In this document: positions 1 through 30,043 of the stretch, piece by piece
Layout: each line of letters opens with the position of its first letter
How positions within the stretch are numbered: the first letter of the stretch is position 1
DNA from: Candidatus Altimarinota bacterium
GTDB lineage: Bacteria; Patescibacteriota; Gracilibacteria; BD1-5; UBA2023
Assembly (NCBI GenBank): GCA_031423995.1
Contig: JANPGO010000007.1
Span: forward strand, 1 to 50,037
DNA length: 50,037 nt
Direction of reading: 5' to 3'
Made by a program: the position numbers and the translations under genes
Notes under the pieces: model-generated
The model's database searches: none
Told to the model about the DNA's origin: nothing
What the model saw: only the letters and a program-made list of their open reading frames with translations

Positions 1-75
1 TGGCTCCCCGAATTGGATTCGAACCAATGACCTACCGGTTAACAGCCGGTTGCTCTACCGCTGAGCTATCGGGGA
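1..75 (-). tRNA. tRNA-Asn (anticodon GTT), CCA encoded
   Basis: The reverse complement folds as a canonical cloverleaf. Acceptor TCCCCGA/TCGGGGA, D stem GCTC/GAGC, anticodon stem ACCGG/CCGGT with loop CTGTTAA, T stem ATTGG/CCAAT with loop TTCGAAT, discriminator G, then CCA. Total 75 nt. Confidence 0.9.
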
Positions 76-2219: not shown

Positions 2220-5200
2220 CTATTGCATCCATTTACATATATAGGTCATAGAGACAGCATTTGATGATGTAGTATTACAAGTGATACTACTTGCGGTACC
2301 ATTCGCTCGACAATAGAGGGCTGTACTTGCTGGTACTGTGAATGCTGCAGAGCCATTACAACTGAGTGCTACCGATGTACTCGCAGGAACTCCTGTACAG
2401 GTCATAACAGCTGGTGTTGCATTACTGACTGTTGTAGCAGCTGTTGTACAAACTCAAGCTGCACTTATCTGAGTACCTGCTGTTCCTAGCTTGAATGTCC
2501 CATTCACTTCGAGCTGAGAGCTTGGAACAGAGGTCCCACCGATATTTACATTTCCTCCGTATGGATTCATATAGAACGATCAAGCGGTGGTTGCATTGGA
2601 CTTCGCTTGCATAGAGTCATTATCGAACATGATATTCGTCGAGGCATACGAACCAAGTCAGAGGTAGGCTCCCGTTGTTGTCAGTGCAGTAATGGTAGGA
2701 AATGTACTCCCTGAGAGTGTCACCATACTCGATGGCTTCGTCGTACCAAAACCTATCATACCACCACCTGAGATTGCCTGAAGCTGAGAGTTGAATCCAG
2801 TATTGATAAAGAAATATTCATTATGATTGGCTGGAACCGTGAGAACTCGTTGCCATGGAGCAGGTGTCTGATACGGAGAATCATTGGTATAGAGTCCTCA
2901 TCCGACCGCACCATTGAATCGTCCACTTCGAGCAAAGAGAGGGGCATCACCTCGTGCACCGAGAGCGAGCTGATATCCATAGGTCGATCCCTTCGCCGTC
3001 ATGGTGAAGGAATTTGCTGGACTCGCAGGAACTCCATAGGTATCATTACCACTACAATTATATGGACTTGTTCCATAGGTTCCATTCCATGAACAGACTC
3101 CTGATGTTCCGTTCTCTCGGAAAAATGGTCCATTATTCGATGTACTCGATCCATCACTCACGACAAATGATTGTGCTGTCGGAATATCGAAGTATTTATT
3201 GTAGTCATAGCTAATCAATCGATTCGCGACATCTGGATCTGGTGTTGGTGGTGAAGATGGATTTCATGCTGTATACACGACGACATCCCCGTTACTTATA
3301 GGAACGACATTTCCTGAAGCATCGACTCCGAGTCCAACACTGGCTCCAGTATAGGTCGTAGAAGTATTACTGAGTCGATTCATACGCAATCCTGAGATAC
3401 CATTGGCTCCACCATCGATATTGAATCGTGCTGTGAGAGCTGCCGACGACCCTGTTCCGATACCGATATTTCCTCCACTTCCATAGATCCAGTTGCCGAT
3501 ATTGAGCTGATTCGATGCTGTATTGCTCGGTACCTGCGCTCCATTCCCGATAGCGATATTGCTCCATCCTGAAGTGATACCACTCCCTGCCATGTACCCG
3601 AGAACAGTATTGTTCGAGGCCGTACTCGTCGCTCCATAGAGCGCATTATGTCCGATGGCAACGTTCCCAGTTCCTGTTCCGAGATTGTAGAGAGATTGTC
3701 CACCGATAGCCACATTATAGTCGGAGCTCGTCGCGACTCGAAGTGCCTGATACCCGATCGCTGTATTCCAGGTTCCATCATTATCATTGTACATGGCTTC
3801 CTTACCGAAGGCTGAGTTATTGAATCCTGAAGTACTCTGGCGGAGTGCCTGATGACCAAATGCTGAGTTGGAATAGCCAGTCGTCATCGTATAGAGTGCC
3901 TCGTTCCCGAATGCAGTATCCGCATTTCCTGTCATACCGATTCTCAGAGCCCCTGCACCCATACCGATATTATTGGTACCACGGAAATTCAGATAGTTCA
4001 CGGACCCTGACCAGATTTCGAAGATACTGGTTGCACCTGTATTTCAGATAGCAACATTCGCACCATTATCATAGAGGAGTGAGTTCATGAGACCATTTCC
4101 ACCTGCACCGAACTTCGTTATATAGTTCGCTGTACCCCCTGTAATTCCTGATGCCGTCGTCGTTCCTGAGAATCCGACTTGCCAGCTCGCAACTCCACTC
4201 GCATCTGAGACAAGGAGTTTTCCGAGCCCCTGGGTTCCATTGATGAGCTGAATCGTACCACCAGACACGGTGAGGAGTTGTCCTGGAGCAGAGGTACCAA
4301 TACCAACATTGGCTCCTGTACCGAGAATGACAGAGTTCGAAACAGAAGCGATAGTATTTGCACCGATAGCAGATGTATTATAGAGTCCATCATAGAGGAT
4401 TCCTGCATTGGTACCAAGTGCTGTATTATTATATCCCGAGAGATTCCCGAGTAGTGTACCACTCCCTATAGCGACATTTCCATATCATGATGTATTGAAT
4501 CCAAGAGCTGTCGACCCGAGTGCAACATTATAATTTCCTGATGTATTCAAGAAGAGTGAGCCGTATCCATTAGCAGTATTATAACTTCCAGTGAGGTTAC
4601 TTTGTAATGCATTGTTTCCATTCGCGGTATTATAGCTTCCTGTAGTATTTCCAACAAGAGTACCTACACCGATAGCAGTATTATTATTTCCTGTAGTATT
4701 CGCGAGCAATGCACCAGCACCTATTGCAGAGTTTAGAAAGCCTGTGGTATTATTTTGCAGATTCGATGCTCCGATAGAGGTATTATAGAATCATGTAGTA
4801 TTCGAAAGGAGCGAACCTGATCACACTGCTATATTAAAATATCCGGTCGTATTCGAGTAGAGCGCACGATATCCGAAAGCAGCATTTCCATTTCCTGTCG
4901 TACTGAATTTGAGTGCCTGATATCCGATGGCAGTTTGATAGTCGACACCTGTGGCGGTATAGAGCGCTTCATACCCCATAGCAACATTTCCTAGACCTAT
5001 CTGATTCTGATTCAGTGATCTCGCTCCGTATGATGTATTATATGAAGCTGTTAGGTTATTATTCTGACTCGTGTATCCAACTGCAGTATTGGCAGCTCCT
5101 GTAGTGATCTGAGTCAATACTCCTCATCCTACTGAGGTATTCTGCGATCATGATGTGAGTGAATTGAGTCCATTGTGTCAGACTGCAGTATTCGCATTTC

Positions 5201-8200
5201 CTGTAGTTATGCTTCCTAGAGTCAGCATACCAATAGCAGTGTTGAATCCAACTGCACCACTTCATCTTCCTATGGTCAATCCGTTGATCACCGCATCCCC
5301 GCCACTGAGGAAGAGGAGCGCCCCTGTCGATGAAGTTGTAGAGAGAATACGGAGTTTCTCAGTATTATTTGTCATCATGATGAGCGGTTGAGCATTGATC
5401 GATCCGATATAGTCATTCGATCCTACCGTGTTTCCTGAGAGAGACCAGTAGGTTCCTGAGAGTGCTGAACTCGTTGATTGCCATGAGCCAATACCCGAAG
5501 CATCTGAGACGAGGAATTTCCCAACTCACTGTGTCCCGTCGATGATCTGGATTGTTCCACCTGAGACGGTGAGTTTCTGTCCTGGAGCAGAGGTTCCGAT
5601 ACCGATATTTCCACCACTTCCGTAGATCCAGTTTCCGATATTGAGCTGATTGGATCCGGTAGATGATGCCACTTGGGCGAAGTATCCGATGGCGATATTC
5701 GATGAACCAGTAGTGATAGAGTATCCTGCAGAATGACCAAGTGCGGTATTGAAGTTTCCCGTGGTATTGGAGATGAGAGAGTACATGCCATTGGCAGTGT
5801 TTTGGTATCCTGTGGTGTTGGAGTAGAGAGCCTGAACGCCATTAGCTGTATTTTGTGCTCCAGTGGTGTTGGAGTAGAGGGCATTGACTCCATCGGAGGT
5901 GTTGTTGACTCCGGTGGTGTTGGAGTAGAGAGCATTCACTCCATTCGCGGTATTCGATGTTCCCGTGCTGTTGGAGAAGAGAGCCCAGACTCCATTCGCG
6001 GTATTGGAGTTTCCCGTGGTGTTGGAGGAGAGAGCATTATGACCATTCGCGGTATTGGAGTTTCCCTTGGTGTTGGAGGAGAGAGCAGAGCGTCCATTGG
6101 CGGTGTTCTGGGCTCCCGTGGTGTTGGAGGAGAGAGCAGAGTTTCCATTCGCGGTATTGGAGAATCCAGTAGTATTCGAGTAGAGTGCCTGGTATCCAAA
6201 TGCTGAATTCGCAACTCCTGTCGTACTGAATTTGAGCGCCTGGTATCCTACAGCAGTCTGAAAGTCGACACCCGTTGATGAATAGAGAGCCTCGGTACCC
6301 AGGGCGACATTTCACGATCCAGTGACATTTGTTCGAAGTGCAGTGTATCCATTTGCGGTATTATTGGATCCTGTGATATTATTAAAAAGGGCATCTCATC
6401 CATTCGCGGTGTTGTAGTCTCCTGTCGTACTGAACCAAAGTGTGTGATATCCATTCGCGGTATTCCAGTTTCCTGCAGTATTAGCAGGGAGCGACCAGGC
6501 TCAATTCGCGGTGTTGTAGTATCATGTAGTATTCGAAAGAAGTGAGTACAAACCATTGGCAGTATTAAAGCCTCCTGTCGTATTGGAAAAGAGTGCTTTA
6601 TATCCGTTCGCGGTATTCCAGTTTCCTGCAGTATTAGAAGAGAGAGCTTGGTAACCCAGAGCGGTATTCGTTGCAAGTTGCCCACTTCCCATACCTACAG
6701 TGATACCATTTATCACCGCATCTCCCCCGTTCATGAAGAAGAGAGCTCCTGTCGATGAAACCGCAGAGAGGATTCGCATCTTCTCTATTCCATTCGTCTT
6801 CATGACGAGATCCTGTCAGTCAGTGGTTCCGAGATAGTTGGTTCCTGCAGTCGTTCCAGCATTTCCTGTCGTACTCCAGTTATTGACCGATGTCGGAACA
6901 ACTTGCCAGGTCGCGAGACCGAGAGCATCGGAGGTGAGGACCTTGTTCACTCATGGAGTTCCACCCTTGATCGTCACTTGACCAGAGAGATAGAGATTGT
7001 TCCATGACTGAGTCGTATTGTTACCGATATCACGGTACGCAAGTGGAGCCGCGAGATCAGGAAGGAGGGATCCTGAGATCGTCACATTGTTCACGGTACG
7101 ATTCACGAAGGTATCCGATATCACCTTCCCCTGTACTGTAATATCACCTGTCACGAGTGCCGAACCAGAGACAGTCAGCTTTTGGCTTGGAGAAGAAGTA
7201 CCAATACCGATATTTCCAGTAGAAAGTGTTGTATTCGCACCATCTACACTGGTACCAAAGATGAGATTTCCGATATTGAGCGTATTGTTGCTCGTCGGCG
7301 TCGGTGTATCGATATCATACCCGAGGACGATGTTATTGTTTCCTGTTGTGATCGACTCAGCTGCCTTGTATCCGAGAAATATATTGTTAGAATAATCCGT
7401 TGCACTAATACCAGCACCAGCAGAGTTTCCGAGAGCAACATTATTCGATCCCGAGCGATTACTCGTAAGTGCTGATACTCAGAGTCAGACGTTATCACTT
7501 CCTGTTGTATTACTCGCCAGACCAGCTATAGATATGTTATTGTTTCCCCATGTATTCTGCTGTAGAGCAGCGGCTCCAAGGGCAACATTATTCGATCATC
7601 AGCGATTTGCCCAGAGAGTGAACCATCCGAGAGTTGTATTCGTCGTACCTGTACCATTCGCTGCATTTGAATTTGGTCACACGATCGTTGATCCTGCTGT
7701 TGCCGATGGGATTCCTGCACCTATCATCAAGCTCGATGAATCTCCACCGAATTTTACCCCGTTCACGAGGATATATCCACCCGTGATCGTGAGTACCTGA
7801 GAGGAGCTCGCGAGCCTCATACGTTCGACTCCATTTGTCTTGAATACTACATCTTGTGCATTATTGCTTCCGATATAGTCATTCACACCGACCGTGTTCC
7901 CTGAGAGAGACCAGTAAGTTCCAGAGAGTGATGCAGTGGTCGACTGCCATGAGGCAACCCCAGCAGCATCTGAGACGAGGAATTTCCCGGCTCACTGAGT
8001 CCCATCGATGATCTGGATGGTACCACCCGAGACGGTAAGTTTTTGCCCGGGAACTGTGGCTCCGATACCGATATTTCCTCCACTTCCATAGATCCAGTTG
8101 CCGATGTTGAGCTGATTGGATAGAGTTGTCGATGGGAGATTCGTATTTGCTCAGAGGGCAATATTGTTTGATCCTGTTGTTATATTGTATGCAGCACCAC

Positions 8201-11200
8201 TTCCGATCGCTGTATTGTTATTTCCTGTCGTATTCGAGTAGAGTGAATTGTATCCAAATGCAGCATTTCCAAATCCTGTAGTACTCTTGTTCAATGCTTG
8301 GTATCCCACTGCCGTTTGATAATCAGAACCAGTCTGTGTATAGAGTGAGTAGCCACCGAGAGCGACATTTCCAGATCACGTCTTATTAGCTAGAAGAGCT
8401 GAGTCTCCCATTGCAGTATTAAATCATCCGGTAGTATTTCGACCAAGTGAGTCAATACCAACAGCGGTATTATTCGATCAGCTCGTATTCGCCAAAAGAG
8501 CCTGCATACCGATTGCGGTATTATACCATCCAGTGGTATTTTGCTGAAGTGCAGTTGCACCATTTGCGGTATTATATCTTCCTGTAGTATTTCCGAGGAG
8601 GGCAGTATCACCAATTGCAGTATTCCAAACTCCTGTCGTATTACGGTTAAGTGTGTAGTAGCCGATTGCGGTATTCTTTCAGAAAGCTGTATCTGTATTT
8701 GATGCGAGTGTCTGGTATCCGATGGCGGTATTATTTACTAATTGTCAGCTTCCTCGTCATACTGTAAAGCCGTTGATCACAGCATCCCCACCACTGAGAT
8801 AGAGAAGAGCTCATGTCGATGAAGTTGCCGAGAGGATTCTTGCTTTCTCCACTCCGTTTGTTTTGAATACCAGATCCTGTCAGTCAGTGGTACCGACGAA
8901 GTTCGTCCCTGCAGACGTCCCACTATTCCCTACGATATTCCATGAGTTTGGAGAAGCAGGAACTATCTGCCAGCTTGCAATACCACTGGCATCTGAGGTG
9001 AGAACTTTATTCACTCACTGAGTCCCGTCGATGATCTGGATCGTTCCTCATGATACAGTGAGTTTCTGTCATGGTACAGTCGCTCAGATACCGATATTCC
9101 CAGCACTTCCATAGATCCAGTTACCGATATTGAGCTGATTCGATGCGGTTCATGAAGGGACTTGAGCATCATATCCGATCGCTATATTACTCGATCCTGT
9201 AGTGATACCAGAGCCAGCTCGGTAACCAATACCGAGGTTCTGAGTACCCGTCGTACTATTTCTGAGTGCCTGGTATCAGATAGCAGTCTGGAAGCTGACA
9301 CCTGTAGCGCTATAGAGAGCTTCATTTCCTACTGCAACATTGCCAGAGCCAATAGTATTGGAGTAGAGGGCAACGAATCCATTCGCAGTATTGTTCGATC
9401 CTATGGTATTGAGTCCAAGTGACCATCAACCATTCGCAGTATTATTCATTCAGTTGGTATTTTGCTGAAGTGCGATCGCTCCGTTCGCAGTATTCCAGTT
9501 TCAGGATGTATTGAATTGAAGCGTACTCGAACCAAGAGCTGTATTAAATGATCCTGTGCTATTCCCTTCGAGTGCAGAGAGTCAGATTGCAGTATTCAAG
9601 TTACCACTCGTATTGAGCCTGAGACTAGAGCCTCATATTGCAGTATTAAATATTCATGTAGTATTGGTACTGAGAGCAATATTCCCAAGAACAGTATTTG
9701 AGGCAGATTGCCCACCTCCCATACCTACAGTCATTCCATTGATCACGGCATCTCCAGCATTCACGAAGAGAAGTGCTCCTGTTGATGAAGTCGCAGAGAG
9801 GAGACGCATCTTCTCAATTCCATTCGTCTTGAAGACGAGAGCCTGGGCATCGGTTGTCCCGACGAAGTGGGTACCAGGACTCGTTCAGGCATTTCCGAGT
9901 ACGAGCCATGCGTTCGAGGCAGCAGATGCAGGTTGCCAACTCGCGACACCATTTGCATCAGAAATGAGGATTTTATTGAGTCATTGACTACCGTCGATGA
10001 TCTGGATCGTACCACCTGAGATCGTGAGCTTTGCTCCAGGAGTCATCGTCCCGATACCGACAGAGCCACTCGCCATACCAGTGGTTCCCATACCAGAACC
10101 ATAGATGACGTTTCCGAGAGAGAACTGATTGTCTTGATTCGTATTCCCGACTGCAGAGCTCCCGAGATAGATGTTATTATTCCCTGTATTCATACCAGTT
10201 CCTGCAGCGGTACCAAGGGCGACATTATAGTTTCATTGCATATTGTAGCCTGCTGATTGTCATCCGATAGCTACATTATTGAATCCGCTCATACTCTGCC
10301 CTGCACCACTTCCACCGAGAGTCGTATTGTAGTATCCATTCGCTCAGATTCCAGCAGAGTAACCTCAGACGAAGGAGTTGTAGGTTCATGAACTACTGAC
10401 TCATACAGCATATCCACCGAGTGCGGTATTTTGTTGTCAATTCATATTCCATCAAGCAAAATATCAACCGAGAGCGAGATTCTGATATCCTTTCATAAAC
10501 ACTCATACTTCATATCCTCAGATTGCAGTATTCAGTGTGCCTGACATCAAGAATCCTGGCCATCATCATCAGATAGCTACATTCTCATATCCATTCATGA
10601 ACCATCATGCATAGGCTCAACCGAATGTTGCGTTATAGTTTCATAACATTTGATAACCTGGACTAAATCATCCTATTCCAGTCTGGTTGGTTCATGTCGT
10701 CTGAAATCATGCACCATTTCACAAGAAGATACTATTCGTAAACGTTCATGTATATGCACCTACTCATGTGATATTTCCATTCGTATTGAATCTCAGCCTC
10801 TCAACTCCATTCGTCTTGAGCACCAAATCATTAGCATTATTCGATCCGATGAAGTCATTGACCCCCACAGTATTTCCTGAGAGTGACCAGTAGGTTCATG
10901 AGAGAGCTGCACTCGTTGATTGCCATGTACCAATACCTGAGGCATCTGAGACGAGGAATTTCCCCGCTCATTGAGTTCCATCGGTGATCTGGAGCGAGCC
11001 CGAGACCGTGAGTTTCGAGGTCGGTGAGGAGGTGCCAATACCGATATTTCCTGTGGAGATGGTGGTATTGGTTCCATTGATACTCGTACCGAAGATGAGG
11101 TTTCCGATATTAAGTGTATTCGAGCTCGTTGGTGTCGGCGTATCGATATCATATCCGAGGACGATGTTATTCGCACCCGTCGTGAGAGCATCTCCTGCCT

Positions 11201-12209
11201 GATATCCGAGGAGAACATTATTCGAGGAGGTGAGGACATATCCAGCTCGATGTCAGAAGACACTATTATTCGAGCCCGCTGAACTGAACTTCATAGACTG
11301 TGTTCAGACAGAAGTATTATATGAACTCGCTGTATTTGTCTGTTGACTCGAGAATCAGACTGCGGTATTATAATTTCCATTGATAAGATAGGTCATCACT
11401 CCTCATCCGAGAGAAGTATTATAACTTCCTGTGGTGACACAACAGAGACCATTATGACCGACAGCAGTATTCGCATTTCCTGTCGTGATAGAGTCAAGAG
11501 TAAATGCTCAAAGTGCCGTATTAAACGCTACAGCGCTACTTCATCTCCCGACTCGCATATCTCCGATGAGGAGATCTCCGCCAGTAAAAGCAATAACTTG
11601 TCCACTTGCATTCATCGTGGAGAGGATTCGCATTTTTTCTGTATTATTCGTCTTCAGTACGAGATCCTGGGCATTGATCGATCCGAGGAAGTCATTTGTA
11701 CCTATAGTATTTCCCGAGAGTGACCAGTAGGTTCCTGAGAGGGTTGCGCTCGTCGTCTGCCAACTCGCGAGTCCTCCTGCATCGGAGACGAGGAATTTCC
11801 CGAGTCCTGGAGTACCTCAGGTGATCATGATCTGACCATTCACCTGGAGTTTCCCTGAACTTGCAGATGGCGTCATACCGATTCCGATATTTCATCCTGC
11901 ATTGTAGAGGTTAGCACTCCCTGTCCAGGTTGTCCCATTGTGGTAGATTGTATATCCAAGCGCACCCGTCATATTGAGTCATGTTGCGGATGGAGTGATA
12001 CAGATCGGCACTCATGTGGAGGTGAATCCTCGGATCACATCACCATAGATAGGACATCCAGGGAAGATATTATCGAAATAGGTTCGATAGGTTCCCCCGA
12101 CGATCTCTCAGGCTGGTGCACCAGTTGGGTAGGTGAGTGCCGATGCGAACGAGATGAGCGAGACAGAGAGTATGAGGGAGAGAGCAAGTGCCAAGAAGCG
12201 GTGACGCAT
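2220..12209 (-). CDS. Giant secreted fibre/adhesin-like repeat protein, 3329 aa
   Basis: ATG at 12207-12209 opens MRHRFLALALSLILSVSLISFASA, a signal-peptide-like N-terminus. I walked the frame codon by codon. About 85 in-frame TGA codons, no TAA or TAG until TAG at 2220-2222. All track ORFs that carry the repeat motifs are in this frame: 2220, 2898, 3264, 4044, 4485, 4821, 5526, 6522, 6951, 7677 and 9981. Content: 17-aa repeats of the form NTANGxxALxSNTTGxx, and about nine neck/knob motifs NQLNIGNWIYGSGGNIGIG..P.QKLTVSGGTIQIIDGTQG.GKFLVSDA.G.ASWQ. Confidence 0.85.
5736..6160 (-). repeat. Tandem 51-bp (17-aa) coding repeat array inside the giant gene, about 8 copies
   Basis: ggtgttggagtagag recurs every 51 nt. 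The array encodes ...SNTTGxxNTANGxxALY... units. It is the most regular part of a repeat pattern that runs through the whole gene. Confidence 0.8.
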
Positions 12210-12226
12210 AGGAGTGAAGTGAGGAA

Positions 12227-13573
12227 TTACTGAATGACAGAATCGAGACCAGGAGGAGGATCAGCAGAGACAGCGCTATTGAAGTCTATTACCATAGACG
12301 ACTTCTCGAACCTGACATCCGTGAATGGAACGGATTTCTGCGTTGGATCGGTATAGTCATAGGTACGGAAATAGTTGAGATCATACACCTGTGAGAGGAG
12401 GGTCGTACAGTTCGAGATGACAACGGGACAGACAGATGGTGTCTGGAGGGCACCCCCGATCGTATTTTTTGAAATAATTCATCACTTGATATATATCTGT
12501 TGGGCTGGGATATTCCATGCTCCAGAGGCAATATACGATGTGATCGGATCTGTTGTCACCGTTTTTTCTCAGGAATAGAGCGATCCCTCAGCATAGATAA
12601 ACGCATAGATTTGATTCACATTCTTCGTGATGATGATATTTCCTCCATTTCCATTCGCATCCTTCAGTGCAATGATCGCTCGCGGATGCGTATCAGTCGG
12701 ATCACCGATGAGACTCTGGTTCAAGATGATATCTCGACCCTCGATGATGATCGAACGCTTCCCTGTCGGCCAGATCCATCCGAATGAGGTATCATAGTCA
12801 AAGGATTGTCCTTTCTGGTAGATGAAGTTTGTACCATTCCCTGATATGAGGTTTGCTGTTGGGATATTTCTCGAGAGCAGTGCGATATTCTTGCGAATCG
12901 TATTGAGGATTTCTGATTGTGAGACATTGCTGAAGACATATCAGACATTCTGGTTGGTCATGTTATAGATACGGCTTCCCGCGATATTTCCGATGACTGC
13001 GATCTTTCCGATAAAGTTGACACTGACCCCGTCGAAAGTGATACCTGTCTGATCAAGTGCTCCCGAGTCAACAGGAGAAGCAGCATAGGCATAGAAAGGG
13101 ATATAGCCAAGTGCACTACTGTGACCAAACCCCTCAAGTACTCATCGTGCTGGATTGTAGTAGACACCCGATCCTCCATCGATGAATGATCCTGAGAGTG
13201 CTATCCATCCACCATTCTGTGACCAGGCAAACCCTGTTGCTGGACAGACGATACTCGTATCTCGGAAGACTGTATCAGGACAGACGATACGAGCCCTCTC
13301 GACACTTCATTCCTGATGATCCAGCCTGACCCAACCGATCTTGCTCACCCAGAAGACTCCTGTGAGGTACCCATCAGTATCGATCATAGCAGCCGAACCA
13401 CTATAGGATGTGCCGATGTCGAATGTTACCTTTCCAGGATGACCTGCAATCCATATATCATCAGGGGTGAATGAGCCTTTAATACGAAAATACTGTCCTG
13501 CACTCATCACGAAGAAGAATGAAAGACTGGATACTAGAAAAATGATGATCGCAAATAGGACTTTACGACTCAT
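12227..13573 (-). CDS. Secreted or membrane-anchored protein with G(F/Y)AWS..GW-type repeats, 448 aa
   Basis: ATG 13571-13573 opens MSRKVLFAIIIFLVSSLSFFFVMSA, a signal or anchor sequence. I walked the frame by hand: 7 in-frame TGA codons, then TAA at 12227-12229. Motifs GVFWVSKIGWVRL and GFAWSQNGGWIAL. C-terminal part contains ...IIIEGRDIILNQSL..IIALKDANGNGGNIIITKNV..IYIKGGIISKNTIGGA. The stop lies 17 nt upstream of the giant-gene start. Confidence 0.75.
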
Positions 13574-13721
13574 AAAAAATGAATACTATTTGTTGAGGAA
13601 TGGAAAAAAGTGAGCTGAAAAACTGAGACTTCGCTTGATAGTACAGAAAAACAGGGAAAAATCACAAAAAAAAATATTCCACAATTCATTTTTTTATTTA
13701 TTATATAGATTTATCCAGCGT

Positions 13722-14495
13722 ATGCCTATATTCGAAATTCATATTTTCAGTCTCACACTCGCCCCAACATGGTATTGACTCATGTACGCATTGGGATTTT
13801 TTCTCTGTTATGAATATATGAAACGTCAGGCGAGATTGAGAAATGGAGATATTGATACACTGCTCTTCTTTATCTTCCTTGGAGTGATACTCGGGGGGAG
13901 ATTTGGCTATGTATTTCTCTACAATGCATCATACTACCTTGGGCATATCTGAGAAATACTCATGCCGTGGAAATGAGGAATGAGTTTCCATGGTGGAGCT
14001 ATTGGAGTCATCATTGCTGTCTTTCTCTTTGCATGGAAACACCGGTATGCTGTTTTCGATATTTCTGATCCTCTTGTCACGATACTCCCTGGAGCACTCG
14101 GGCTCGGACGTATAGGAAACCTTATCAATCATGAGCTCCTCGGTTTCTCTGCCTACACTTGACCATTCGGCATAATAGAGGGTGGTGTGAGGCATTTTCC
14201 AAGCCCACTTCTTGAGGGATTTTTGGAAGGCATAATTCTCCTCGTTCTAATGTTTCTCTGGAAGAAATATGAAACAAGGTACGAGAGAAAACCCTGATAT
14301 GCTTCTGCATACTTTCTTCTCTTCTACGGAATATTTCGGATATTTTCAGAGTTTTTTCGCCTTCCTGATGCTCATATAGGGTACCTCTTCGGAACCAATT
14401 GGGTCACTCTCGGAATGATCTATAGCCTCCCCATGCTTCTCTGAAGTGGTATTGTCTGGTACTATGCAAGAAAGAGGTGAGCTGAAAGCCGATAG
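13722..14495 (+). CDS. lgt: Prolipoprotein diacylglyceryl transferase
   Basis: Frame open from ATG 13722 to TAG 14493-14495, with 7 TGA codons. Motifs [27 protein letters not shown] and [13 protein letters not shown]. Multi-pass hydrophobic profile. Confidence 0.85.
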
Positions 14496-14630
14496 GAATT
14501 AGATATAGTTGAGTGAACTGGATGAAAAAAATCAAGAAAGTGCCATCTAGAGGAAAGTATGGATCTTTATTTCATTCTCTACTGTCTTGTTATTCAACGC
14601 TCTCTCCTATCTGCTATTCTCTATCTGCTC

Positions 14631-15140
14631 CTATCTCACTCCCATCATTGCGGATCATGGGAGGAAAAATCCAATACCCGTCATATTCTTGATCTTCACA
14701 AAGAGATTCCAGTACGATATTGCCCTATTGACACTCGCAAAATGAGATCGCATAAGACGCTCATACTCGATGATAAAGTCTCGTATATAGACAAAGTACT
14801 CGTCCTTCTGAACAGACTTCGTATGCATAGAAAGTTCCATGAGAAAGAGGAAGTCATTCTGGATCTTGGCATTGAGTCCGAGTATGTCATAGAGTGTTCG
14901 AAATTCTTGGATCATAGCCTGAGTATGGAGACGTATGATATGATCGAATGACTCTTCTCGATCAATATACGGTCTCATGACTTCGATGAGTGCGGGGATT
15001 TTTCCGATCTTTCCGAGAAAGAGATCAATCAGTATTGATTCCTGAACGGCAACATATTTTGAAAGCACGAAAAAGAAGATTGCATAGATACTGAGGAACC
15101 CGATAGCAATACTGAGAATGACGATTCCAAAAGAAAACAT
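14631..15140 (-). CDS. LemA-like single-pass membrane protein
   Basis: N-terminal TM helix (FGIVILSIAIGFLSIYAIFFFVL) followed by a helical domain with LemA-like spacing (IDLFLGKIGKIPALIEVMRPYIDRE). One TGA is read through. The true stop is TAG at 14631-14633. The family assignment is weak. Confidence 0.5.
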
Positions 15141-15269
15141 ATCATTACTATAGGAAGAAATTCCTCTTTTTCAAGAAAGTTCTTGAAAAAAGTAAAAGTC
15201 TTCGTATTCTGAATTCTGGATAAAATCATTGAGACTTCTCTAAAAATTAGAAAAATCCATACAACAATC

Positions 15270-16703
15270 ATGAAACGATACGATATTCGCCTCTCCCTGA
15301 TAACATTTACGATTGAAATCGCCGGCATTATTGGACTTTTTTTTGTGAGCTACTTTCTCAGGTCAATCACGGACGGTATCCCATTCGTCCAACTTCGAAT
15401 ACCCTTTATCAGTGAAGCACAATTTATCCCCTTTGTCCTCTATTGAGTACTCTTTTGGTGAGCAATATTTTCCAATGCTCGACTCTATACCTATGTGCCC
15501 GACAAGCCAATCATCGAAACACTGAGAGAGACAATTTCTCGAAGTATACTTTGGTTTTTTATCTATATTGGTTTTGTCTATCTCTCGACAGGATTTCTCT
15601 TCGAGAAAGAAATACCACGACTCATCATCCTCTATGTCTGGATCTTCTCGACCACTTACTCAGTCATCCTCCGACTTTCACTCGCAGCGATCATGAACCT
15701 CTTGTATGAAAGATGAATACTTCCTCGTAAAAAAATCCTCGTCATCGTACCAAAAGAATGAGAATCATATACTCTCCTTCCGCATCCATCGATCGAATAT
15801 ATCTATCAAGATGCGAGTCAGTATGGAGCAATTTTTCGATCTATCAGAGAAAAGTCTGTCGATGCTGTTCTCTCACTCCTCTGAAAAAATGAAACGAAGA
15901 AAACCCTAGAAGTCATCAAACTCTGTGAAATCTATGGTATCAGTTACTCGTATCCGAAGATACTCCCATCAGTATTAGAAATTCCAAAACGAGATACAAT
16001 CATCTGAGGCATTCCAGTCGTAGAGAGTACCTCTGTATCGATCACTCATTGGGAACGTATCATCAAGCGTACTGGGGATATTATTGTTTCAATTTTTTGA
16101 ATTATCACTCTCTCTCCCCTCTTCTGTATTATTGCACTCATGATACAGTTCGAAGATCCCTCATGACCAATACTCTTCAAAAACCGCCGTGTATGACTCT
16201 GAGGAAAAGAATTTTTCCTCTATAAATTCCGTTATATGTACTGGAAATATAGTATCAAGGATGCCTATGGTGTGAAGGAAAATGAAGATAGTGCACTCCA
16301 GTATGAAGAACATCTCAAAGAATCCAACGATACTCGTGACTGACCGCTCTACAAGATCACTGATGATCCACGGCGGATGAAGGGAGGAAGAATTCTCGAG
16401 AGACTCTCCCTCGATGAACTCCCTCAGCTCTTCAATGTCCTCAGAGGTGATATGTCTCTCGTCTGACCCCGACCGCATCAGCCTCGTGAAGTCAAGGAGT
16501 ATGAAGAGCATCATTACCAAGTTCTGACTATTAAGCCAGGTATCACTGGGATGGCGCAAGTCTATGGACGAGAGGAAAATACTTTCGAGGAAGAGGTTGG
16601 TCTCGATACCTACTATATCGAGCACTATTCCCCGATACTCGATCTCCTCATCCTCATACGTACAGTATTTGTCGTTTTGCAGCGAGCCTTCAGGAGGAAA
16701 TAA
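15270..16703 (+). CDS. Polyprenyl-phosphate sugar phosphotransferase (WbaP/EpsL-type 'bacterial sugar transferase')
   Basis: Frame walked from ATG 15270 to TAA 16701-16703. N-terminal TM segments. C-terminal catalytic domain motifs: [65 protein letters not shown]. Confidence 0.85.
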
Positions 16704-16821
16704 GGAAAAGAGGAAGTCTTTTTTGGAAAATCGAGAAAATTTCGTATTATCGACAGGAATAAAAAATGAAAGATATTCCATCCTGATTCCTATGTATTGA
16801 TATCTGATACTTTCCCTTGTC

Positions 16822-16849
16822 CTAAATTCTAAAATCTAAATTCTAAAAT
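16822..16849 (+). repeat. 2 x 14 bp direct repeat (4 x heptamer TAAAWTC), 10 nt upstream of valS
   Basis: ctaaattctaaaat occurs twice in tandem. It ends 10 nt before ATG 16860. Confidence 0.6.
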
Positions 16850-16859
16850 CTCACCTTTT

Positions 16860-19682
16860 ATGTCTGATTTTCCAAAACACTATACCCCACAGGATACTGA
16901 GAAATCTATGCAAGATCTCTGGGAACGAGAAAAATGCGCTCTTCCTCATGCAAGTACAACAGGGAAAACCTTCTATATCCCGATTCCTCCGCCAAATGTC
17001 ACAGGCAAGCTCCATATCGGTCATGCACTCATGCTCTCACTCGAGGATATCATGATCCGATACCATCGCATGATCGGGGATGAGACGATATGGATTCCTG
17101 GCACGGATCATGCAGGGATATCCACGCAGGCGCGTGTCGAAGATCGTCTGAATAAACAGTGAACGCCGCGAAAACAAATCGGTCGTGAGAAATTCCTCGA
17201 AGCATGTAAAGAATGGGTGAGTGAATATGGTGGACATATCCAGTGACAGGTTGCCCGTATGGGTGCATCCGTTGACTGGACTCGTGAACGATATACCTTC
17301 GATGACAAGTCGAATGCACTTGTTGAGAAGATATTTATAGACCTCTATAACAAGTGACTCATATACCGTGGTGAGTATATGGTGAACTACTCTCCAGTCC
17401 TCGAATCTGTCATCTCTGATATCGAGGTCGAACACAAGGAAGTCGAAGAGAAAATGTATTATATCAACTATTTCGTTGCTGGAAGTGACAAGGAACTCCT
17501 CGTTGCTACGACACGTCCAGAGACACTCCTCGCTGATCAGGCAGTAGCGGTACATCCGAAAGATAAACGGTACAAGAAACTCATCGGTCGATCGGTCATA
17601 CTCCCAATAGTGAATAAGGAAATCCCTATCATTGCTGATGAGATGGTCGATATGGATTTCGGAACTGGTGTTGTGAAGATCACTCCAGCCCACGATCCTG
17701 CAGATTTCGAGACAGCAAAAAGACACAATCTCCGAATGGACTATCGTGTGATCGATCGCAACGGTATGATGACCAAGGAAGCAGGAATATTTGCAGGTCT
17801 TCTCGCAAGTGGGGAAGGCAGGTCAAATATCGTCGAACTATTGAGAAGCAAGGGAAATCTCGTGAAGGTCGAACCATACACCCATAAGGTTGGTTTCTGT
17901 GAACGCAGTAAATGTCGAATAGAGTCGGTCGTCTCAACACAATGGTTCGTCAGCGCCTCTGTCATGGCAGAGAAAGTCATCATAGGATACAAAAAGAAGG
18001 ACTTCGAAATCATTCCAGAACGATTCAATAAAACATTTGAGGACTGGATCTATAATCTCCGTGATTGGTGTATCTCTCGCCAGCTCTGGTGGGGTCACCA
18101 GATACCAGCATATTTCGATACCAATACGGGAGAACTCCTCGGGGTGACGAGTGATCCGAGTGAGATCTATAGGAAGCAATGTGAGAAGTATCATCTTCCT
18201 ATCAATACTCTGACTCTACAAAGTCTGAAAGCTTCTCAAAAACGAAGAAATTCGGATGAAGTATGACCACCGCAGTGAATCGTATCTGGTAATACGACGA
18301 ACGAGGAAGCGGAACACTGAATTCGAAGTTCGAGTTTTTCAGAAGCTTTCATGAAGAGGGATGAGGATGTCCTCGATACATGGTTCTCGAGCGCACTCTG
18401 GCCATTCTCGGTTCTCGACTGGGACTTTGAGACACCGAGTGAATTTTTCGAGAAATTCTATCCAGCTGATGTTCTTGAGACAGGACACGATATTCTCTTT
18501 TTTTGGGTTATTCGTATGTTCCTCATGGGCTATGAATACACCGGACAGTCTCCATTCAAAAAAGTATATCTCCATGGTCTCGTACTCAATGAAGATGGAA
18601 AAAAAATGAGTAAAAGCGCTGGAACCGTGATCGATCCTCTTTCGATCATCGATAAATACTCAACAGATGCACTGAGACTCGCCCTTGTTCTCGGGAATAC
18701 CCCGGGGAATAATCTCAATTTCTCCATCAAAGATGTCGAAGAATATGGATTTTTTCTGAATAAACTCTGGAATATTGTCCGATTTTCCTGGATGAATGTC
18801 GGAGATATCAACGAAGATCGTACAGTCATCGAAGAGAGAATCAAGACACATGAGCAACACCTCCTCCCATATGAACGTTGGATCCTTTCTCGACTTTCGA
18901 GCATCACCAAGAAGATGACAGCAGGAATGGAGGAATATAGCTTCTCATCGAGTGGACTCGAGCTCCTCGCATTTATCCGTGATGAGTTCGCCGACTTTGC
19001 AATCGAGGCATATAAAATAGAAAAAGATATGAGTATTGTTGGGAAAGATGTCATGAAGCTCTGTATTCTCGATATTCTTGGCCTGCTCCATCCATATGCT
19101 CCTCACATTACAGAGAAACTGTATGGTTCAGTTACTGGATGACGAATTCTGATGATGAGTACATGGCCGGTCTCAACGATCGATTCAGAGAAGTCGAGTG
19201 AGGAGCTCATGACTCGAGTCTTTGATATTGTGAGGATCATTCGCAATATTCGCGCAGAATCAAAGGTACCAGCAGGTGAACTTCGTGATATCATGATCAT
19301 AACTCCTGAAGTATATCGTAGCGGGATAGAAATAAATGCTCGCATTATTGCTTGACTTGGACGATGAAGTTCTATCGAAGTCGGGAAAAAACCGCCAAAA
19401 TGATCAGGCTATGCCTATGGGGTTATCCACGGTATAGATATTTATGTCGATGCTCGTATCGATGCATCCAAGATCGAGGAAGAACGAGCACGACTCGAAT
19501 CACAGATAGAAGAAAAAAGGTTCTATCTAAGAACTCTTTCTACAAAGCTCCAGAATAATGCATTTATTGCCAATGCTCCAGAAAAAATTGTCCGAGTAGA
19601 GATGGAGAAAAAAAATCAGGCAGAAACAGAGCTCAAAAAACTCGAAGAGAAATATCATACTCTCACAACGGAGATAGACTAA
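16860..19682 (+). CDS. valS: Valyl-tRNA synthetase
   Basis: PPPNVTGKLHIGHA (HIGH motif), TRPETLL, WWGHQIPAY, DEDVLDTWFSS, KMSKS and a C-terminal coiled coil. Track ORFs 16860, 17379, 18351 and 19152 share one frame and are joined only by TGA codons. TAA at 19680-19682. Confidence 0.95.
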
Positions 19683-21662
19683 TTAGTCTGCAATTCTGAA
19701 AGTATAATCATCTTCAACAAACCGTCACTTCATCGCAGAGAGACATCGGATGATATTATTGTGCCAATTGGCACTCGATGATGCATAGATTGGCCCATCA
19801 CCATTCCCCCAACGAGAGAGATCGCTCACATGGGTATACTGAATAAGGAACCTATTGTTGAGAGTCTTTCCCATCCAATCGACCCCCTCTTGTGCCGTGG
19901 TGAATGAATATGTATCTCCACTGTCCGTATTTCCGATATTTCCGATATTGTAGTCGGTCTTCATATGATTCCCAAGTGTGGTCTCAGCAAGACCGACACA
20001 CATGAGGAAACTTGGATCAACATGGTATTCGAGTGCCGAATTGACCCACATATTCCAATCCTTGTATTCCTGACTCGCATACGTTGAGAGGAGGTACTTC
20101 TGTCGATCTTCTTCTGTGTTTCCCTTGAGCGTGAATTTGACTTCATAGGCACTCAGATCTCTTCCAGTTCAGAAAGACTCAACCATATCCCCGAGGAATT
20201 TTTCCTGATAGCGGGATGGAAGACTCGGATATTCAATCTGATTCAACGAGAGAACTCTGAGTGGATCAAGCGCACTGCCATCATGCCATACTTCAAAGTG
20301 AAGGTGTGATCCACTCGTCATCGGTCCAGCACCTGGAGTTCCAGGAGCTCCTCCACTTTTTGCGATGAATTGACCCTTCGTGACGAACTGATATGGAAGG
20401 ACATCAACTTCTGAGAGATGTCCATAGACGGTCACGTATCCATCTGGATGTCTGAGTGCAATGTAGGAATACCCTCATGGTGCAGGAGGAAGAATATAAT
20501 AGACATATCCATCCAGCGCAGCCGTCACATCACTTCCTTGATCGATCGCGATATCGATGGCATCATGCTGACTTCAGAAAGCCTCATAGTAGTCAGGGTC
20601 TCGGAAAAATGTCGTAATCGTTCGTGAGTTCACTGGCCATCGAAGAATATTAGTCGTCCCTGTGAGCACTTGAACTCACTTGAGAGCACGTTCATTTCGA
20701 TAGTAGGCGAGCATGATCGAACATTTTTGAACATCATGTGCCGTCTTTTTGACAACATTACATCCGTTCTTCTCAAGAAGGACATCGAGTGAGGCATTAT
20801 ACGCCTTCGTTGCATCCTGCCATGCCGTCTCTACAGTCATTTCTGCCTCCTTCTGAGAGTCGATATATTTCTGAAAAAGGTCTTCCTGTCATTTTGTGAT
20901 GTCAATAAGTTTCTGCCGTTCATTTCCCTGAATAATGAGGTTCGATTTCTGTCTTTCAAGTGTTGTATTGAGGTTTTCAAGATCAGCTATTTCTTCTTTG
21001 AGCTTGAGGTTGAGCCGATAATAGTCCTGTATGAGAGCCTTATATTCATCAACGAATTTTTCTCAGAGTTCACTGACGAGAGATTTGTAGGTGATATCCG
21101 TGATGATTCCATCGGTCGAGTCAGATGAAAGTACTAATCCTTGAACGATATCAATATCATTATTTTCATCATAGACAAATGCTCACTCTGAATGAATGCT
21201 CGCAAGGTATTGAAATATCACACTCCGATTTCTGACAATCTTTCGTTTGAGTTGTAGTGAAGTGATTTGGTATTCTTGGATCTTTGAACGTTTTTCGATG
21301 ATTGATTGTTCGCTCGTATCAATATTCTCTTGTGTTTTCGCGACTGCATCATCGATGAGCCAGAGAGCCTCTTCGAGTGAATTTCGTTTTTCTGTTGCGA
21401 GATTTTTTTTAATACTATAGGTTTCCTGCACTGATTGGAGTTTTCGCTTCAGTCATTCAAGACCATTCATACGGTATTCATTCTGGAGGAGCTCTGTCGA
21501 ACCAGACTGTCCAAAAGGCAATGTCTCAAAAAGCATTTTATACTCAACATCTTTGAAGTTCTCAAGAACACGAGCAGACGTACCTGGATTGATGGCGAGT
21601 ACCAGGAGCGGAGTTGCTACTGAAAAGAAGAAGAGGGGAAGAATTATATATTTTGCATTCAT
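19683..21662 (-). CDS. Secreted coiled-coil M23 (LytM-type) metallopeptidase with an extra C-terminal domain
   Basis: Signal peptide MNAKYIILPLFFFSVATPLLVLA. Long heptad-like region. M23 motifs: HDAIDIA, YIALRHPDGYVTVYGHLSEV, TSGSHLHFEVW. The C-terminal ~160 aa contain CVGLAETTLGN..NIGNIG, which may be a muramidase- or glucosaminidase-like fold. The true stop TAA is at 19683-19685, after read-through of TGA 19725-19727. Confidence 0.8.
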
Positions 21663-21762
21663 ATGACTATGCTATCATGTATACGAATTTGAAGCAATAA
21701 ATCCCATGAAAGAGACAAGGAATTCGACTTGTCGATTTGATGAATCACAGGATTATAGAGTC

Positions 21763-23121
21763 CTACTTCGTGAATTGGTGAAAAAACTGCTCTTTCTTTC
21801 GCATCCACTCATCACTCTGACGACAAAGGAGATGAGAATCCTCGGTATGAGCAATGAATTTTTTGATCCCTTCTTCCAGAAAGATCGTATTCTGACTCCC
21901 TTTCACATAGATAATCGTTGGAGTTATCTCACCTTCAGAAAGGAGTTTCTCGATAGATTTGCCCATATCTCGACTCGAGAGCGAATATTCAGTAGGATAA
22001 TGCTCGGAAAGAAGTGGATAAACATGTTCATGCATAAGTGGTCAAACGAGGAAAAATCGTATATCATGATATGTCCGTACATGTTCGATGATGAATGTTG
22101 CAAGGTTCATATGGAGGTTTTTTGCCTCTGTTCCGAGTTCTCGCATATCTCCAAGGAGACAGAAGATTCGATGTGTGGCAGAAAATGGAAGGATCGATTC
22201 AATCCCCCGACAGAGTGACTCGTACCCACCGTTGTAACTCCCATCGATGATGACCGATTGTTTTTTGCCCTCAAGAATTGATGATCTTCCTGCCTCTGGG
22301 ACAAATTTCTTTGAACATTTCTCAATATGAAGCGGATCAATCCCGAGGAGAAAAGCGATTCCGAAAACAGGGAGTACGTTTTCTACCTGATATCATCAGA
22401 ATGCGGGGAGAGAAATAGAGTAGGTTGTCTCCTTGAGGTGTACCTGGGCATCTACTCAAGAAATTGCCATATGCATATGTGAGGCGTCTATATCAGACAT
22501 TCCTCCCATACTATAGTAGAGAGCGTCTCGATCGATATATTGTCTCAGTCCTTCATAGACAATAAGTCGCTTCGAATGCTTTGCAAGGAGGAGTTTCGCA
22601 TTTCTATAGGACTCGAATGTTCAGAATTGTTCGATATGGTTTGGTGCAACCGGCGAGATGATACCAATATCTGGATGCGCGATGGAAAGAAGGAACTCCA
22701 TCTCACCTGGTCGATCGATTCCATATTCGAGAACCAGATATGGAGGATACGATCGAAATAGTCGACTGACTGCGACGAGAAATACCCACATCCAGAGGAA
22801 TGGATTTTTTCCACCAGTCCTCACTCCAATAATCGAGAGTGGGAGCCCGAATTCTCCATTATAGTGATACGGTGAGATCATCACTTCTTTCTCCCCGAAT
22901 TCCTGTTTCAAGAACGTAGCAATATGGGCTGTGATTGTTGTTTTTCCAACTGTCCCTGTCACTCCAATAATAAATGGCTTCTTGATACGGATGAGAGATC
23001 GAGCAAAAAAACCGAGAACAAAGAGAAACATAGTGGAAAATACAATCTCGGCAAATAGTAGGAAAATCGAGGAAGAAATCAAGAAAAAAACTTTCCTCGG
23101 GTCTCTGATTTTCATTTGCAT
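21763..23121 (-). CDS. murF: Mur ligase, most like UDP-MurNAc-tripeptide--D-Ala-D-Ala ligase
   Basis: IIGVTGTVGKTT, YNGEFGLPLSIIG, VLEYGIDRPGEM, IIDGSYNGG, LLGDMRELG. Frame joined across 5 TGA codons to TAG at 21763-21765. Start is ATG 23121 or 23115. The longer track ORF reaching 23478 is an artefactual N-terminal extension. Confidence 0.75.
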
Positions 23122-23169
23122 AAAGAGAAAACTTCTATACAATTTCTTTATATTTTTTCCCATACACCT

Positions 23170-23547
23170 ATGGCTCAAGTGATTCGCAATGATTTTACCT
23201 TTACCATTTTGGATGAGATCCAGGCAAAGTATCCAGAACTCGTCGATCTTGTTCTCGGCAGTGAGTCGATAGACAACAATGAGAAACAATACTGGTTCGA
23301 TATCATGCCTTCTATGACAGATGAGCAGGTAGATAGGCTCTTCAATATTCTCATGACTGAGCGCCGTCAACTCGAGGAGCTCAATATCAAGTATCAGGAA
23401 GAGATTAAAACGCTCAATGAGAAACACCTCATCCAGTGGCAGAGTCTCCAATCCCAAAAGGCAAAAGAAAAAGTGCAAGAAGCGGAAAAATCTGATCGTT
23501 CAAAACAAGATGCAGATGATGCACTTGGACTCCTTCAGAGTATATAA
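23170..23547 (+). CDS. Small coiled-coil protein of unknown function (125 aa)
   Basis: ATG 23170 opens MAQVIRNDFTF... The protein contains YWFDIMPSMTDEQVDRLFNILMTERRQLEELN. It is divergent from murF. Confidence 0.6.
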   Translation: MAQVIRNDFTFTILDEIQAKYPELVDLVLGSESIDNNEKQYWFDIMPSMTDEQVDRLFNILMTERRQLEELNIKYQEEIKTLNEKHLIQWQSLQSQKAKEKVQEAEKSDRSKQDADDALGLLQSI

Positions 23548-23620
23548 TTATTTCTTCAGAGGACTATTTTGGTCAGATTAACTTTCTGAATAGTATTCAA
23601 TCACCTCAATACGTTTTTCA

Positions 23621-29395: not shown

Positions 29396-30043
29396 ATGAA
29401 GAAAATTTGATTCATGCAATTCATCCGTTCCATTACAGGTTCAACCATGATTGAGCTTATGGCAGTACTTGCCATCATGGGTATGGGAATAGCATGACTT
29501 CTTGAAACGATATGATCTGGTATTTATTTTGCGAAGGATACAGAAAACAATATTAAAGCAATTAATCTTGCTCGTGAATGAATAGAGTGAGTTATCAATA
29601 TCCGAGATACCAATTGGCTACGATTCTCGGGTGATAGAGTGAACTGTTGGCGAACCAAGGATTATAATGGATGATGCATCAACGATAGTTCCTTTGTTTG
29701 ACTCATTGCCTCTGGATCATATACAATTTTTACTCGAAATGGGGCCTGGGTTCTCTCTGGAGCAACACAGATTGATCCGACTGCTAACTGGAATGGATAT
29801 GCAAATATGTACATGGTAGGTCTTGACAGTGGAGGATTTTTTACTCAGACAGGGGTAACCACAACACAATGATGTAGTAATCAAACACAGACTGGATGCT
29901 TAACTGTTTTCGCTCGTGAGATTTCTTTGACCGTAATCGGAACTGGTACAATGAACGTCAAAAGCATCATTCGATGGCAAGAGCGACGTCCGATGAGTGT
30001 GATTCTTGATACGACACTCACGAATTGGAAATCTAATTTCTAA
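29396..30043 (+). CDS. Prepilin-type N-terminal cleavage/methylation protein (minor-pilin/pseudopilin-like)
   Basis: Class III signal: ...RSITG|STMIELMAVLAIMGMGIAG, with Glu at +5 and a hydrophobic helix. 215 aa. TAA at 30041-30043. An alternative start is ATG 29414. Confidence 0.75.

Follow-up and report, generated by a model that had tools for sequence, protein, structure and literature searches.

The window analysed here, positions 1 to 50,037 of contig JANPGO010000007.1 (Candidatus Altimarinota bacterium, assembly GCA_031423995.1), carries at its left end, on the minus strand between positions 2220 and 12209, a gene for a repetitive secreted protein of 3,329 residues. The gene is read here, with fair confidence, as encoding a Sec-exported giant fibre of the kind found in phage tails and among the prey-binding mosaic adhesive trimer (MAT) proteins of Bdellovibrio bacteriovorus, of the non-S74 subtype, and as a candidate host-attachment fibre.

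Architecture and genetic code of the fibre gene

Frame 0 of the minus strand over 2220-12209 contains no TAA, 85 in-frame TGA codons and a single TAG, which is the terminal stop (2220-2222); the remaining frames over the same interval are full of stops. The original prediction of a 9,990-nt open frame without TAA and with about 85 TGA codons is thereby borne out in frame, size and positions, and it needs correction only in that the gene lies on the minus strand. Translation with table 25 gives 3,329 residues with the N-terminus MRHRFLALALSLILSVSLISFASA|LTYP, where MRHR, a hydrophobic core and ASA|L agree by inspection with the Sec-type signal peptide that had been proposed for the start of the protein. 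This N-terminus is kept in P0004 and in 15 related loci. Glycine, threonine, asparagine, serine and alanine make up 60% of the protein.

The meaning of TGA can be read from the conserved positions of the repeats. The near-invariant glycine of DGTQG.GK is encoded by TGA in six of the eight modules, and the two invariant glycine positions of the 17-residue repeat are enriched in TGA, which means that genetic code 25 (TGA = Gly) applies. The invariant tryptophan of SWQ is TGG in every case. TGA also accounts for 13-41% of glycine codons in each of nine window genes counted, and its use for glycine in this genome is shown directly. The best related loci belong to metagenome-assembled genomes (MAGs) of Gracilibacteria, and an NCBI contig, JAYWEZ010000073.1 (GCA_043779325.1), is 96.6% identical over window positions 10260-23574. 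Given the TGA usage, the related MAG loci and this contig, the window is chromosomal DNA of a code-25 Gracilibacteria bacterium. An exact 50-mer from the window is absent from the GTDB representative genomes.

The overall plan of the protein is a signal peptide and N-terminal domain (N-domain), eight modules alternating with eight repeat arrays, a ninth neck, and a C-terminal region of about 400 residues that contains cysteines. The features are as follows.

2220-12209, minus strand: complete fibre open reading frame (ORF), 3,329 codons plus TAG stop; table 25, 85 TGA read as Gly
12138-12209, minus strand: signal peptide, residues 1-24, MRHRFLALALSLILSVSLISFASA; by inspection, with predicted cleavage after ASA
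11928-12137, minus strand: lineage-specific N-domain, residues 25-94, Cys pair C52/C70; conserved in orthologues, presumed cell-proximal anchor
11550-11927, minus strand: module 1, residues 95-220; capping loop GNIGIG..KLQV, terminal strands, linker SDAGGLASW, restart W.L.GN...KTNN.EKMRI
11118-11522, minus strand: array 1, residues 230-364
10704-11123, minus strand: module 2, residues 363-502
10227-10634, minus strand: array 2, residues 526-661, Gly-rich variant of the 17-residue repeat
9726-10133, minus strand: module 3, residues 693-828
9135-9734, minus strand: array 3, residues 826-1025
8760-9143, minus strand: module 4, residues 1023-1150
8115-8675, minus strand: array 4, residues 1179-1365
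7749-8120, minus strand: module 5, residues 1364-1487
7392-7718, minus strand: array 5, residues 1498-1606
6696-7289, minus strand: module 6, residues 1641-1838, split by an insertion of about 50 residues after KLTVSG; insertion also in the close relative L080
5649-6668, minus strand: array 6, residues 1848-2187, about 20 repeats, the longest and most regular
5271-5654, minus strand: module 7, residues 2186-2313
4359-5243, minus strand: array 7, residues 2323-2617
4095-4358, minus strand: module 8, partial, residues 2618-2705; capping loop, strands and linker, without the KTNG.E.MRI restart
3507-4007, minus strand: array 8, residues 2735-2901
3405-3515, minus strand: ninth copy, neck only, residues 2899-2935, with NQLNIGNWIYGSGGNIGIG
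2223-3404, minus strand: C-terminal region, residues 2936-3329, presumed distal tip; unique domain with C3039/C3052 and a further capping loop, GGNVNIGGTSVPSSQLEVNG
2223-2453, minus strand: terminal Cys-rich unit, residues 3253-3329, six Cys, ending ...YICKWMQ; common to the orthologues L039, L041, L014 and L080, with other tips elsewhere

The eight K-L-T-V-S-G cores lie at nt 11852, 11015, 10031, 9065, 8042, 7181, 5576 and 4277, each within 10 nt of the coordinate given for it before. About nine neck/knob blocks had been counted; eight of these stand as modules, and the ninth is a neck only (NQLNIGNWIYGSGGNIGIG, about 3470-3512). The segment W.L.GN...KTNG.E.MRI, said to follow each block, follows seven of the eight and is missing from block 8, while block 6 is the one that carries the insertion. 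Local re-scoring of the window protein with the module gives seven full and three partial matches. The 17-residue periodicity is confirmed by autocorrelation, with peaks at lags 17, 34 and 51 that reach 0.6 identity (residues 1850-2170). At least 73 units are in register, with the consensus N-T-A-[NILV]-G-x-x-A-L-x-S-N-T-T-G-x-x, and the hidden Markov model (HMM) of the repeat covers about 1,900 of the 3,329 residues (about 58%). The C-terminal pieces have no match in PHROG, Pfam or NCBIfam (the C-terminal 415 residues for Pfam and NCBIfam), and the Peptidase_S74 domain, with its S-D-x-x-x-K cleavage motif, is absent from the protein.

Identity and distribution of the modules and arrays

Pfam and NCBIfam scans of the whole protein and of seven pieces return no match, nor does a phmmer search of the PDB with a single 478-residue piece. 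Only a profile succeeds, one built on 21 modules from the window and from relatives in the databases. Against the PDB it matches the Bdellovibrio fibre Bd2133 (8OND, E=6.6e-13, four stretches), which supplies homology to a beta-helical fibre family, as well as Bd3182 (8OJN, E=1.9e-5) and Bd2439 (8OL4, E=1e-3). Weaker matches are to 8OML (0.012) and 8ON4 (0.027), both named 'Cell wall surface anchor family protein' and from the same deposition series, and marginally to MyRF (7DC3, 0.048). The alignments centre on GNVGIGT..P..KL.V, and the capping loop described by Caulton et al. 2024 reads V-G-G/N-pi-x-x-P-x-x-x-L (PMC10769870). In the Bd2133 alignment, GNIGIG..P..KL.V falls on the capping loop, and the strands after it close the second beta-helix. 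SDAxGxxS falls on the linear linker A906-T912, and the invariant tryptophan on W913, the first residue of the next domain.

Because the module profile matches crystal structures of MAT fibres, the neck is a beta-helix capping loop of the MAT/S74 type, and the knob is made up of the last strands together with the inter-domain linker. The knob of the original prediction is not upheld as a globular domain; the alignment to Bd2133 gives in its place a capping loop, last strands and a short, linear, hinge-like linker (PMC10769870). The broader idea of a fibre-like, segmented protein related to tail fibres fares well, with the module profile matching solved trimeric beta-helix fibres and the arrays matching phage fibres. 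In relatives (P0005; L003) an S74 trimerisation chaperone directly follows the identical neck motif; P0016 carries S74 too, and of 162 relatives 66 have it. In single-unit Bacteroidota relatives, the restart motif found here after the linker opens the stalk right after the N-domain. With a neck that elsewhere precedes S74 and a restart that elsewhere opens a stalk, the giant protein can be seen as a chain of about eight fibre units joined head to tail. An AlphaFold 2 monomer of a full module (P0001, alignment of 10 sequences) has a predicted local distance difference test score (pLDDT) of 54 and is unusable.

The arrays lead to phage fibres as well. They match PHROG families 23837, 6002 and 4636, which are tail-spike and virion-structural families, at 1e-36 to 1e-28, and tblastn aligns them at 40-52% identity with annotated tail fibres from phages in culture, namely Roseobacter CRP-7, Methylophilales phage Venkman, Pelagibacter HTVC111P/112P and Prochlorococcus P-SSM2. 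The profile of the repeat array has no match in the PDB. For array 6 with its neck, an AlphaFold 2 monomer of moderate confidence (pLDDT 65) shows two strands per 17 residues in a regular pattern. This model has no significant fold match in the PDB, trimeric autotransporter heads included, and against BFVD it finds viral fibre and S74 proteins down to 1e-9. On such models the array may be either a single-chain solenoid or an intertwined triple helix; both are possible.

A kinship of the repeats with YadA heads (Hep_Hag) had also been suggested and is not supported. Neither the whole protein nor the isolated arrays match Pfam Hep_Hag or YadA_anchor at E<=10, and there is no PDB or fold match. 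Membership among the trimeric autotransporter adhesins is rejected, as Hep_Hag/HIM (PF05658/PF05662) and the YadA_anchor barrel (PF03895) are lacking, and the chain ends in a soluble-looking Cys-rich unit instead of the C-terminal YadA_anchor translocator.

An exhaustive HMM search finds the module in 16,482 representative proteins at E<=1e-3 and in 3,734 at E<=1e-10, many of them 1,000-4,669 residues long with 5-31 matched stretches. The suggestion that a single chain of nine units would be out of the ordinary is not supported by these counts. By local re-scoring, full modules number 21 in P0014, nine in P0035 and nine in P0036 (Chitinophagaceae), and a protein of the cultured Chryseobacterium polytrichastri has eight module matches, two of them full-length. 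The same alternation of arrays and modules is seen in P0092, P0022, P0105, P0027, P0031 and P0016, most of which end in S74. Reiteration is typical of a large, unannotated family, and the window protein stands at the long end of its array/module type. The multi-module relatives are annotated at source as 'hypothetical protein'; a giant one, P0050 (4,669 aa, JGI), bears the name 'ethanolamine utilization microcompartment shell protein EutS', an evident misannotation. Homologues from recoded lineages appear in the protein database only as fragments of 80-200 residues with TGA called as stop, so that homologue counts for code-25 organisms are underestimates. A MAT-like protein in a Bdellovibrio sp. 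MAG (L026, ORF 7286-11074) combines the module with a short 17-residue array, and the two therefore co-occur outside the candidate phyla radiation (CPR) and Bacteroidota.

Variation, neighbours and the proposed role of the fibre

The base of the fibre is constant among orthologues, and the stalk and tip are not. Complete orthologous fibres range from 1,521 to 2,392 residues, keep the N-domain and have at least four different C-termini. Two syntenic orthologues (L003, L011) carry an S74-like C-terminus (E about 1e-30) directly after NQLSIGNWIYGSGGNIGIG..KLHVNG, and other orthologues end in three unrelated tips (..CMWMQ, ..YYISVIQ and ..NIAGGGI). Strains with 92-97% identity in the flanks and at the ends of the fibre gene (L080, L081, L082, L083) lose colinearity within it, with breaks near nt 10260-10270 (array 2) and between nt 4035 and 4894. 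One of them, L080, differs in how many modules it has and in their order, and its Gly-rich array is longer. The pattern suggests that recombination drives stalk variation between strains.

The fibre gene is part of a cassette of Lgt (divergent), up449, fibre and ABC-F (convergent) that is kept in at least 12 MAG loci of Gracilibacteria type. Its partner up449 always adjoins the fibre gene in related MAGs and has 95 database relatives of about 450 residues, all unnamed. It shows repeated G-W motifs (GYLSGxFWLGNVGW, GxAWSxNAGWI, GFGWSxxLGWIPF), and searches of Pfam, PHROG and the PDB, a profile search included, find no relatives. The other neighbours are housekeeping genes (ABC-F, Lgt, ValRS and Mur ligase), and neither the module nor the repeat occurs in any other ORF of the window. 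Two loci labelled Candidatus Peribacteria (L027, L041) share the Lgt/up449/fibre/ABC-F synteny. In both, the long ORF is open only with TGA as a sense codon; that of L041 is 77 residues with table 11 and 2,278 with table 25. Either the taxonomic label or the assumed code of these two looks wrong. Further features of the window are listed here.

12227-13573, minus strand: up449, a 448-residue membrane-anchored or secreted orphan, hydrophobic in an N-terminal segment; same strand as the fibre gene and 17 nt upstream of it
33579-38591, plus strand: second giant secreted protein, 1,671 residues, with a C-terminal transmembrane segment and a low-complexity tail
38678-41002, plus strand: 775-residue membrane protein following the 1,671-residue protein, with PKD domains by Pfam
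26238-27212, plus strand: prepilin-peptidase-like membrane protein, by sequence inspection
29396-30043, plus strand: pilin-like protein, weak N_methyl match below cut-off
19683-21662, minus strand: secreted 659-residue protein with a coiled-coil-like N-terminal half, an M23 peptidase domain and a weak glucosaminidase-like C-terminus
1-75, minus strand: tRNA-Asn (GTT), at the very start of the window

The 1,671- and 775-residue proteins are candidates for further surface or adhesion proteins, and the putative type IV pilus components lie about 15 kb from the fibre locus. The 659-residue protein could act as a cell-wall hydrolase, which would matter for a predatory or epibiotic way of life.

The chain of the proposed fibre is built as follows. 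Each unit has a solenoid-like array of 17-residue N-T-A-x-G...N-T-T-G repeats like those in the tail fibres of cultured phages, then the capping loop (GNIGIG..P..KL.V), some terminal strands and the short linker SDAxGxxS, after which comes W.L.GN.GT..NF.GTTD..L.F.TNN.ERMRI, the motif with which the stalk of single-unit relatives starts. Three chains would assemble into a homotrimeric, segmented fibre with flexible joints at the linkers; we infer trimerisation from homology to trimeric structures and from S74 in orthologues. Scaled from Bd2133, in which 370 residues span about 14-15 nm, the fibre would have a length of the order of 100 nm. The N-domain would hold it at the cell surface, possibly through up449, and the Cys-rich C-terminal tip would bind a surface structure of the host or prey cell that this metabolically reduced epibiont would need. 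Such a fibre agrees with the epibiotic way of life proposed for these lineages and with the idea of giant surface proteins put forward for Vampirococcus. Recombination among diverged repeats, together with tip swapping, would retune reach and specificity, as in the host-range evolution of phages. MAT fibres are surface-exposed and bind glycans (PMC10769870; PMC12428579), and by analogy an epibiotic CPR cell could plausibly use such a fibre to attach to its host.

Several points weigh against this reading. Expression, trimerisation, anchoring, surface location and ligand are all predictions, and the AlphaFold 2 monomers are of low to moderate confidence (pLDDT 54 and 65). The N-domain is unrelated to the MAT N-domain: BLASTP of residues 1-100 against the N-terminus of L026 and other relatives gives a best E of 0.66, and with no similarity to Bdellovibrio or Bacteroidota N-domains it forms its own conserved Gracilibacteria family. 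The mature chain lacks a sortase signal, lipobox or transmembrane anchor. MAT deletions in Bdellovibrio cause no measurable loss of predation (PMC12428579), which makes function uncertain even in the model family, and the family also occurs in many non-predatory Bacteroidota, so that the adhesion target may be something other than a host cell.

These last points feed the rival that survives best, though it is judged improbable, namely a general surface coat or spacer fibre, serving structure, defence against grazers or phages, or surface and biofilm adhesion, and not specific host recognition. The abundance of the family in free-living Bacteroidota and Ignavibacteria would suit a coat, as would MAT deletions in Bdellovibrio without a clear predation phenotype (PMC12428579) and the giant proteins of Vampirococcus, which are only said to give a 'fibrous' surface (PMC8080830). 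However, tips are swapped between orthologues while the N-domain stays constant, and the stalk is a mosaic between strains that are 95-97% identical elsewhere. Tip swapping and a mosaic stalk bear the mark of diversifying selection on a determinant of specificity rather than that of a passive coat.

That the repeat count is an assembly artefact, whether chimera, collapse or expansion, is very unlikely. Close strains do differ in mid-gene, and the public contigs of L082 (JAYWEZ010000073.1) and L083 (JAYUDY010000050.1) end inside the orthologous fibre gene, which indicates that the gene fragments short-read assemblies and that complete copies are rare. Yet the 9,990 nt stay open under code 25 with a coherent domain grammar, and independent assemblies confirm the gene ends, with 92-97% identity over the 5' 1.95 kb and the 3' 1.8 kb. 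Collapse in particular is unlikely, and is rejected, because the paralogous internal segments share only 64-85% DNA identity and the longest exact direct repeat among them is 45 nt.

An ice- or mineral-binding adhesin has no better claim. Here the Thr/Asn/Ser-rich beta-solenoid arrays would bind ice, as in giant RTX ice adhesins; relatives come from glacier-fed streams, and both the G/T/N/S/A-rich composition and the glacier-stream-style isolate names of the closest genomes would fit, as would a weak 'antifreeze beta roll' Pfam match in P0014. That match, however, is below threshold, the window protein matches no ice-binding family, and the arrays are not confined to the cold, being present in phages with marine and temperate hosts and across many non-cold habitats. 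Least probable of all is a phage or prophage tail-fibre or tailocin fibre gene lying in the chromosome: although both building blocks are common to phage tail fibres and relatives carry S74 chaperones, prophage origin is rejected on the Sec signal peptide, the housekeeping neighbours and the four-gene synteny repeated in at least 12 distinct MAGs, and the window ORFs that were examined include no further phage-like gene.

If the host-attachment fibre is taken as the starting point, a wider and more tentative possibility is that this Gracilibacteria clade owes its host range mainly to the up449-fibre cassette, as a cellular counterpart to the receptor-binding module of a phage. In such a system up449 would be the envelope dock and the N-domain a constant adaptor, with stalk length tuned by repeat recombination (1,500-3,300 residues) and tips exchanged horizontally. 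If this were true, CPR epibionts and Bdellovibrio-type predators would share one fibre toolkit for prey, acquired independently or via shared phage ancestry, and tip type could predict the hosts of uncultured Gracilibacteria.

Comparison with known systems

Very little is established about the hosts of Gracilibacteria or about how these bacteria attach to them, and the literature discusses mainly type IV pili. The locus offers a concrete, conserved and testable candidate for a host-recognition fibre, with a constant base, a variable stalk and swappable tips. The MAT-type module, for its part, belongs to a very large family of more than 16,000 representative clusters without Pfam annotation, hidden in recoded lineages because gene calling with table 11 breaks the genes up at TGA codons. 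With Pfam-style models of the module and of the 17-residue repeat, giant proteins now listed as 'hypothetical' would be annotated by the thousand.

The closest parallel is with the NS74 subgroup of Bdellovibrio MAT proteins (Bd2133, Bd1334, Bd2439; PMC10769870), which likewise start with a signal peptide and a conserved N-domain and continue as a long repetitive fibre to a C-terminal tip that varies. The capping-loop beta-helix unit is homologous by sequence, S74 and non-S74 versions coexist among the relatives, and tips are swapped. The MAT family comprises 21 members that share a beta-rich N-domain of about 130 residues directly after the signal peptide (PMC10769870). The N-domain of the Gracilibacteria fibre is unrelated to it, and the protein has about three times the length and repeats its unit eight times. 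It is also the product of a single conserved locus with an orphan partner, whereas the MAT proteins form a 21-member paralogous family, and it belongs to a code-25 bacterium of the CPR, a group not known to have an outer membrane, and is known here from its sequence.

Fibres and spikes of phages with S74 (the K1F endosialidase stalk, the L-shaped fibre pb1 of T5, and the fibres of Roseobacter, Pelagibacter and Prochlorococcus phages) share the homologous 17-residue arrays, and in relatives the neck precedes the S74 cleavage site. In contrast, the Gracilibacteria gene is chromosomal and its product Sec-exported; it lacks S74 and phage neighbours, and its units are reiterated. The multi-module proteins of Bacteroidota and other phyla have the module, the reiteration and often the array/module grammar. 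They include the 1,853-residue protein of Chryseobacterium polytrichastri DSM 26899, the Chitinophagaceae protein MFT3826183.1 with nine modules, and P0014, with 3,108 residues, 21 modules and an S74-like end. Unlike the window protein they use the standard code and have other N-domains, and most end in S74; all are uncharacterised.

The YadA, Hia and UspA1 adhesins resemble the fibre superficially, in an N-[ST]-[AV]-x-G pattern every 14-17 residues and in their fibre-like adhesin logic, but the window protein matches none of Hep_Hag, HIM and YadA_anchor and has no C-terminal beta-barrel. The giant proteins of Vampirococcus lugosii (1,392-4,163 aa; PMC8080830) are comparable in setting, as giant secreted proteins of a code-25, CPR-related epibiont proposed for host attachment. 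Compared by description only, they differ in being characterised by WD40, TPR, PKD and similar domains, with no tail-fibre or MAT architecture reported (PMC8080830). Literature searches turn up no account of MAT-like or tail-fibre-like fibres in Gracilibacteria or any other CPR bacteria, and the supplements of the MAT paper make no mention of CPR or Bacteroidota homologues. Set among these systems, the kind of protein is known, a phage-derived trimeric adhesive fibre, and the variant is an undescribed one that combines a new N-domain, an orphan partner and eight concatenated units in a recoded CPR host.

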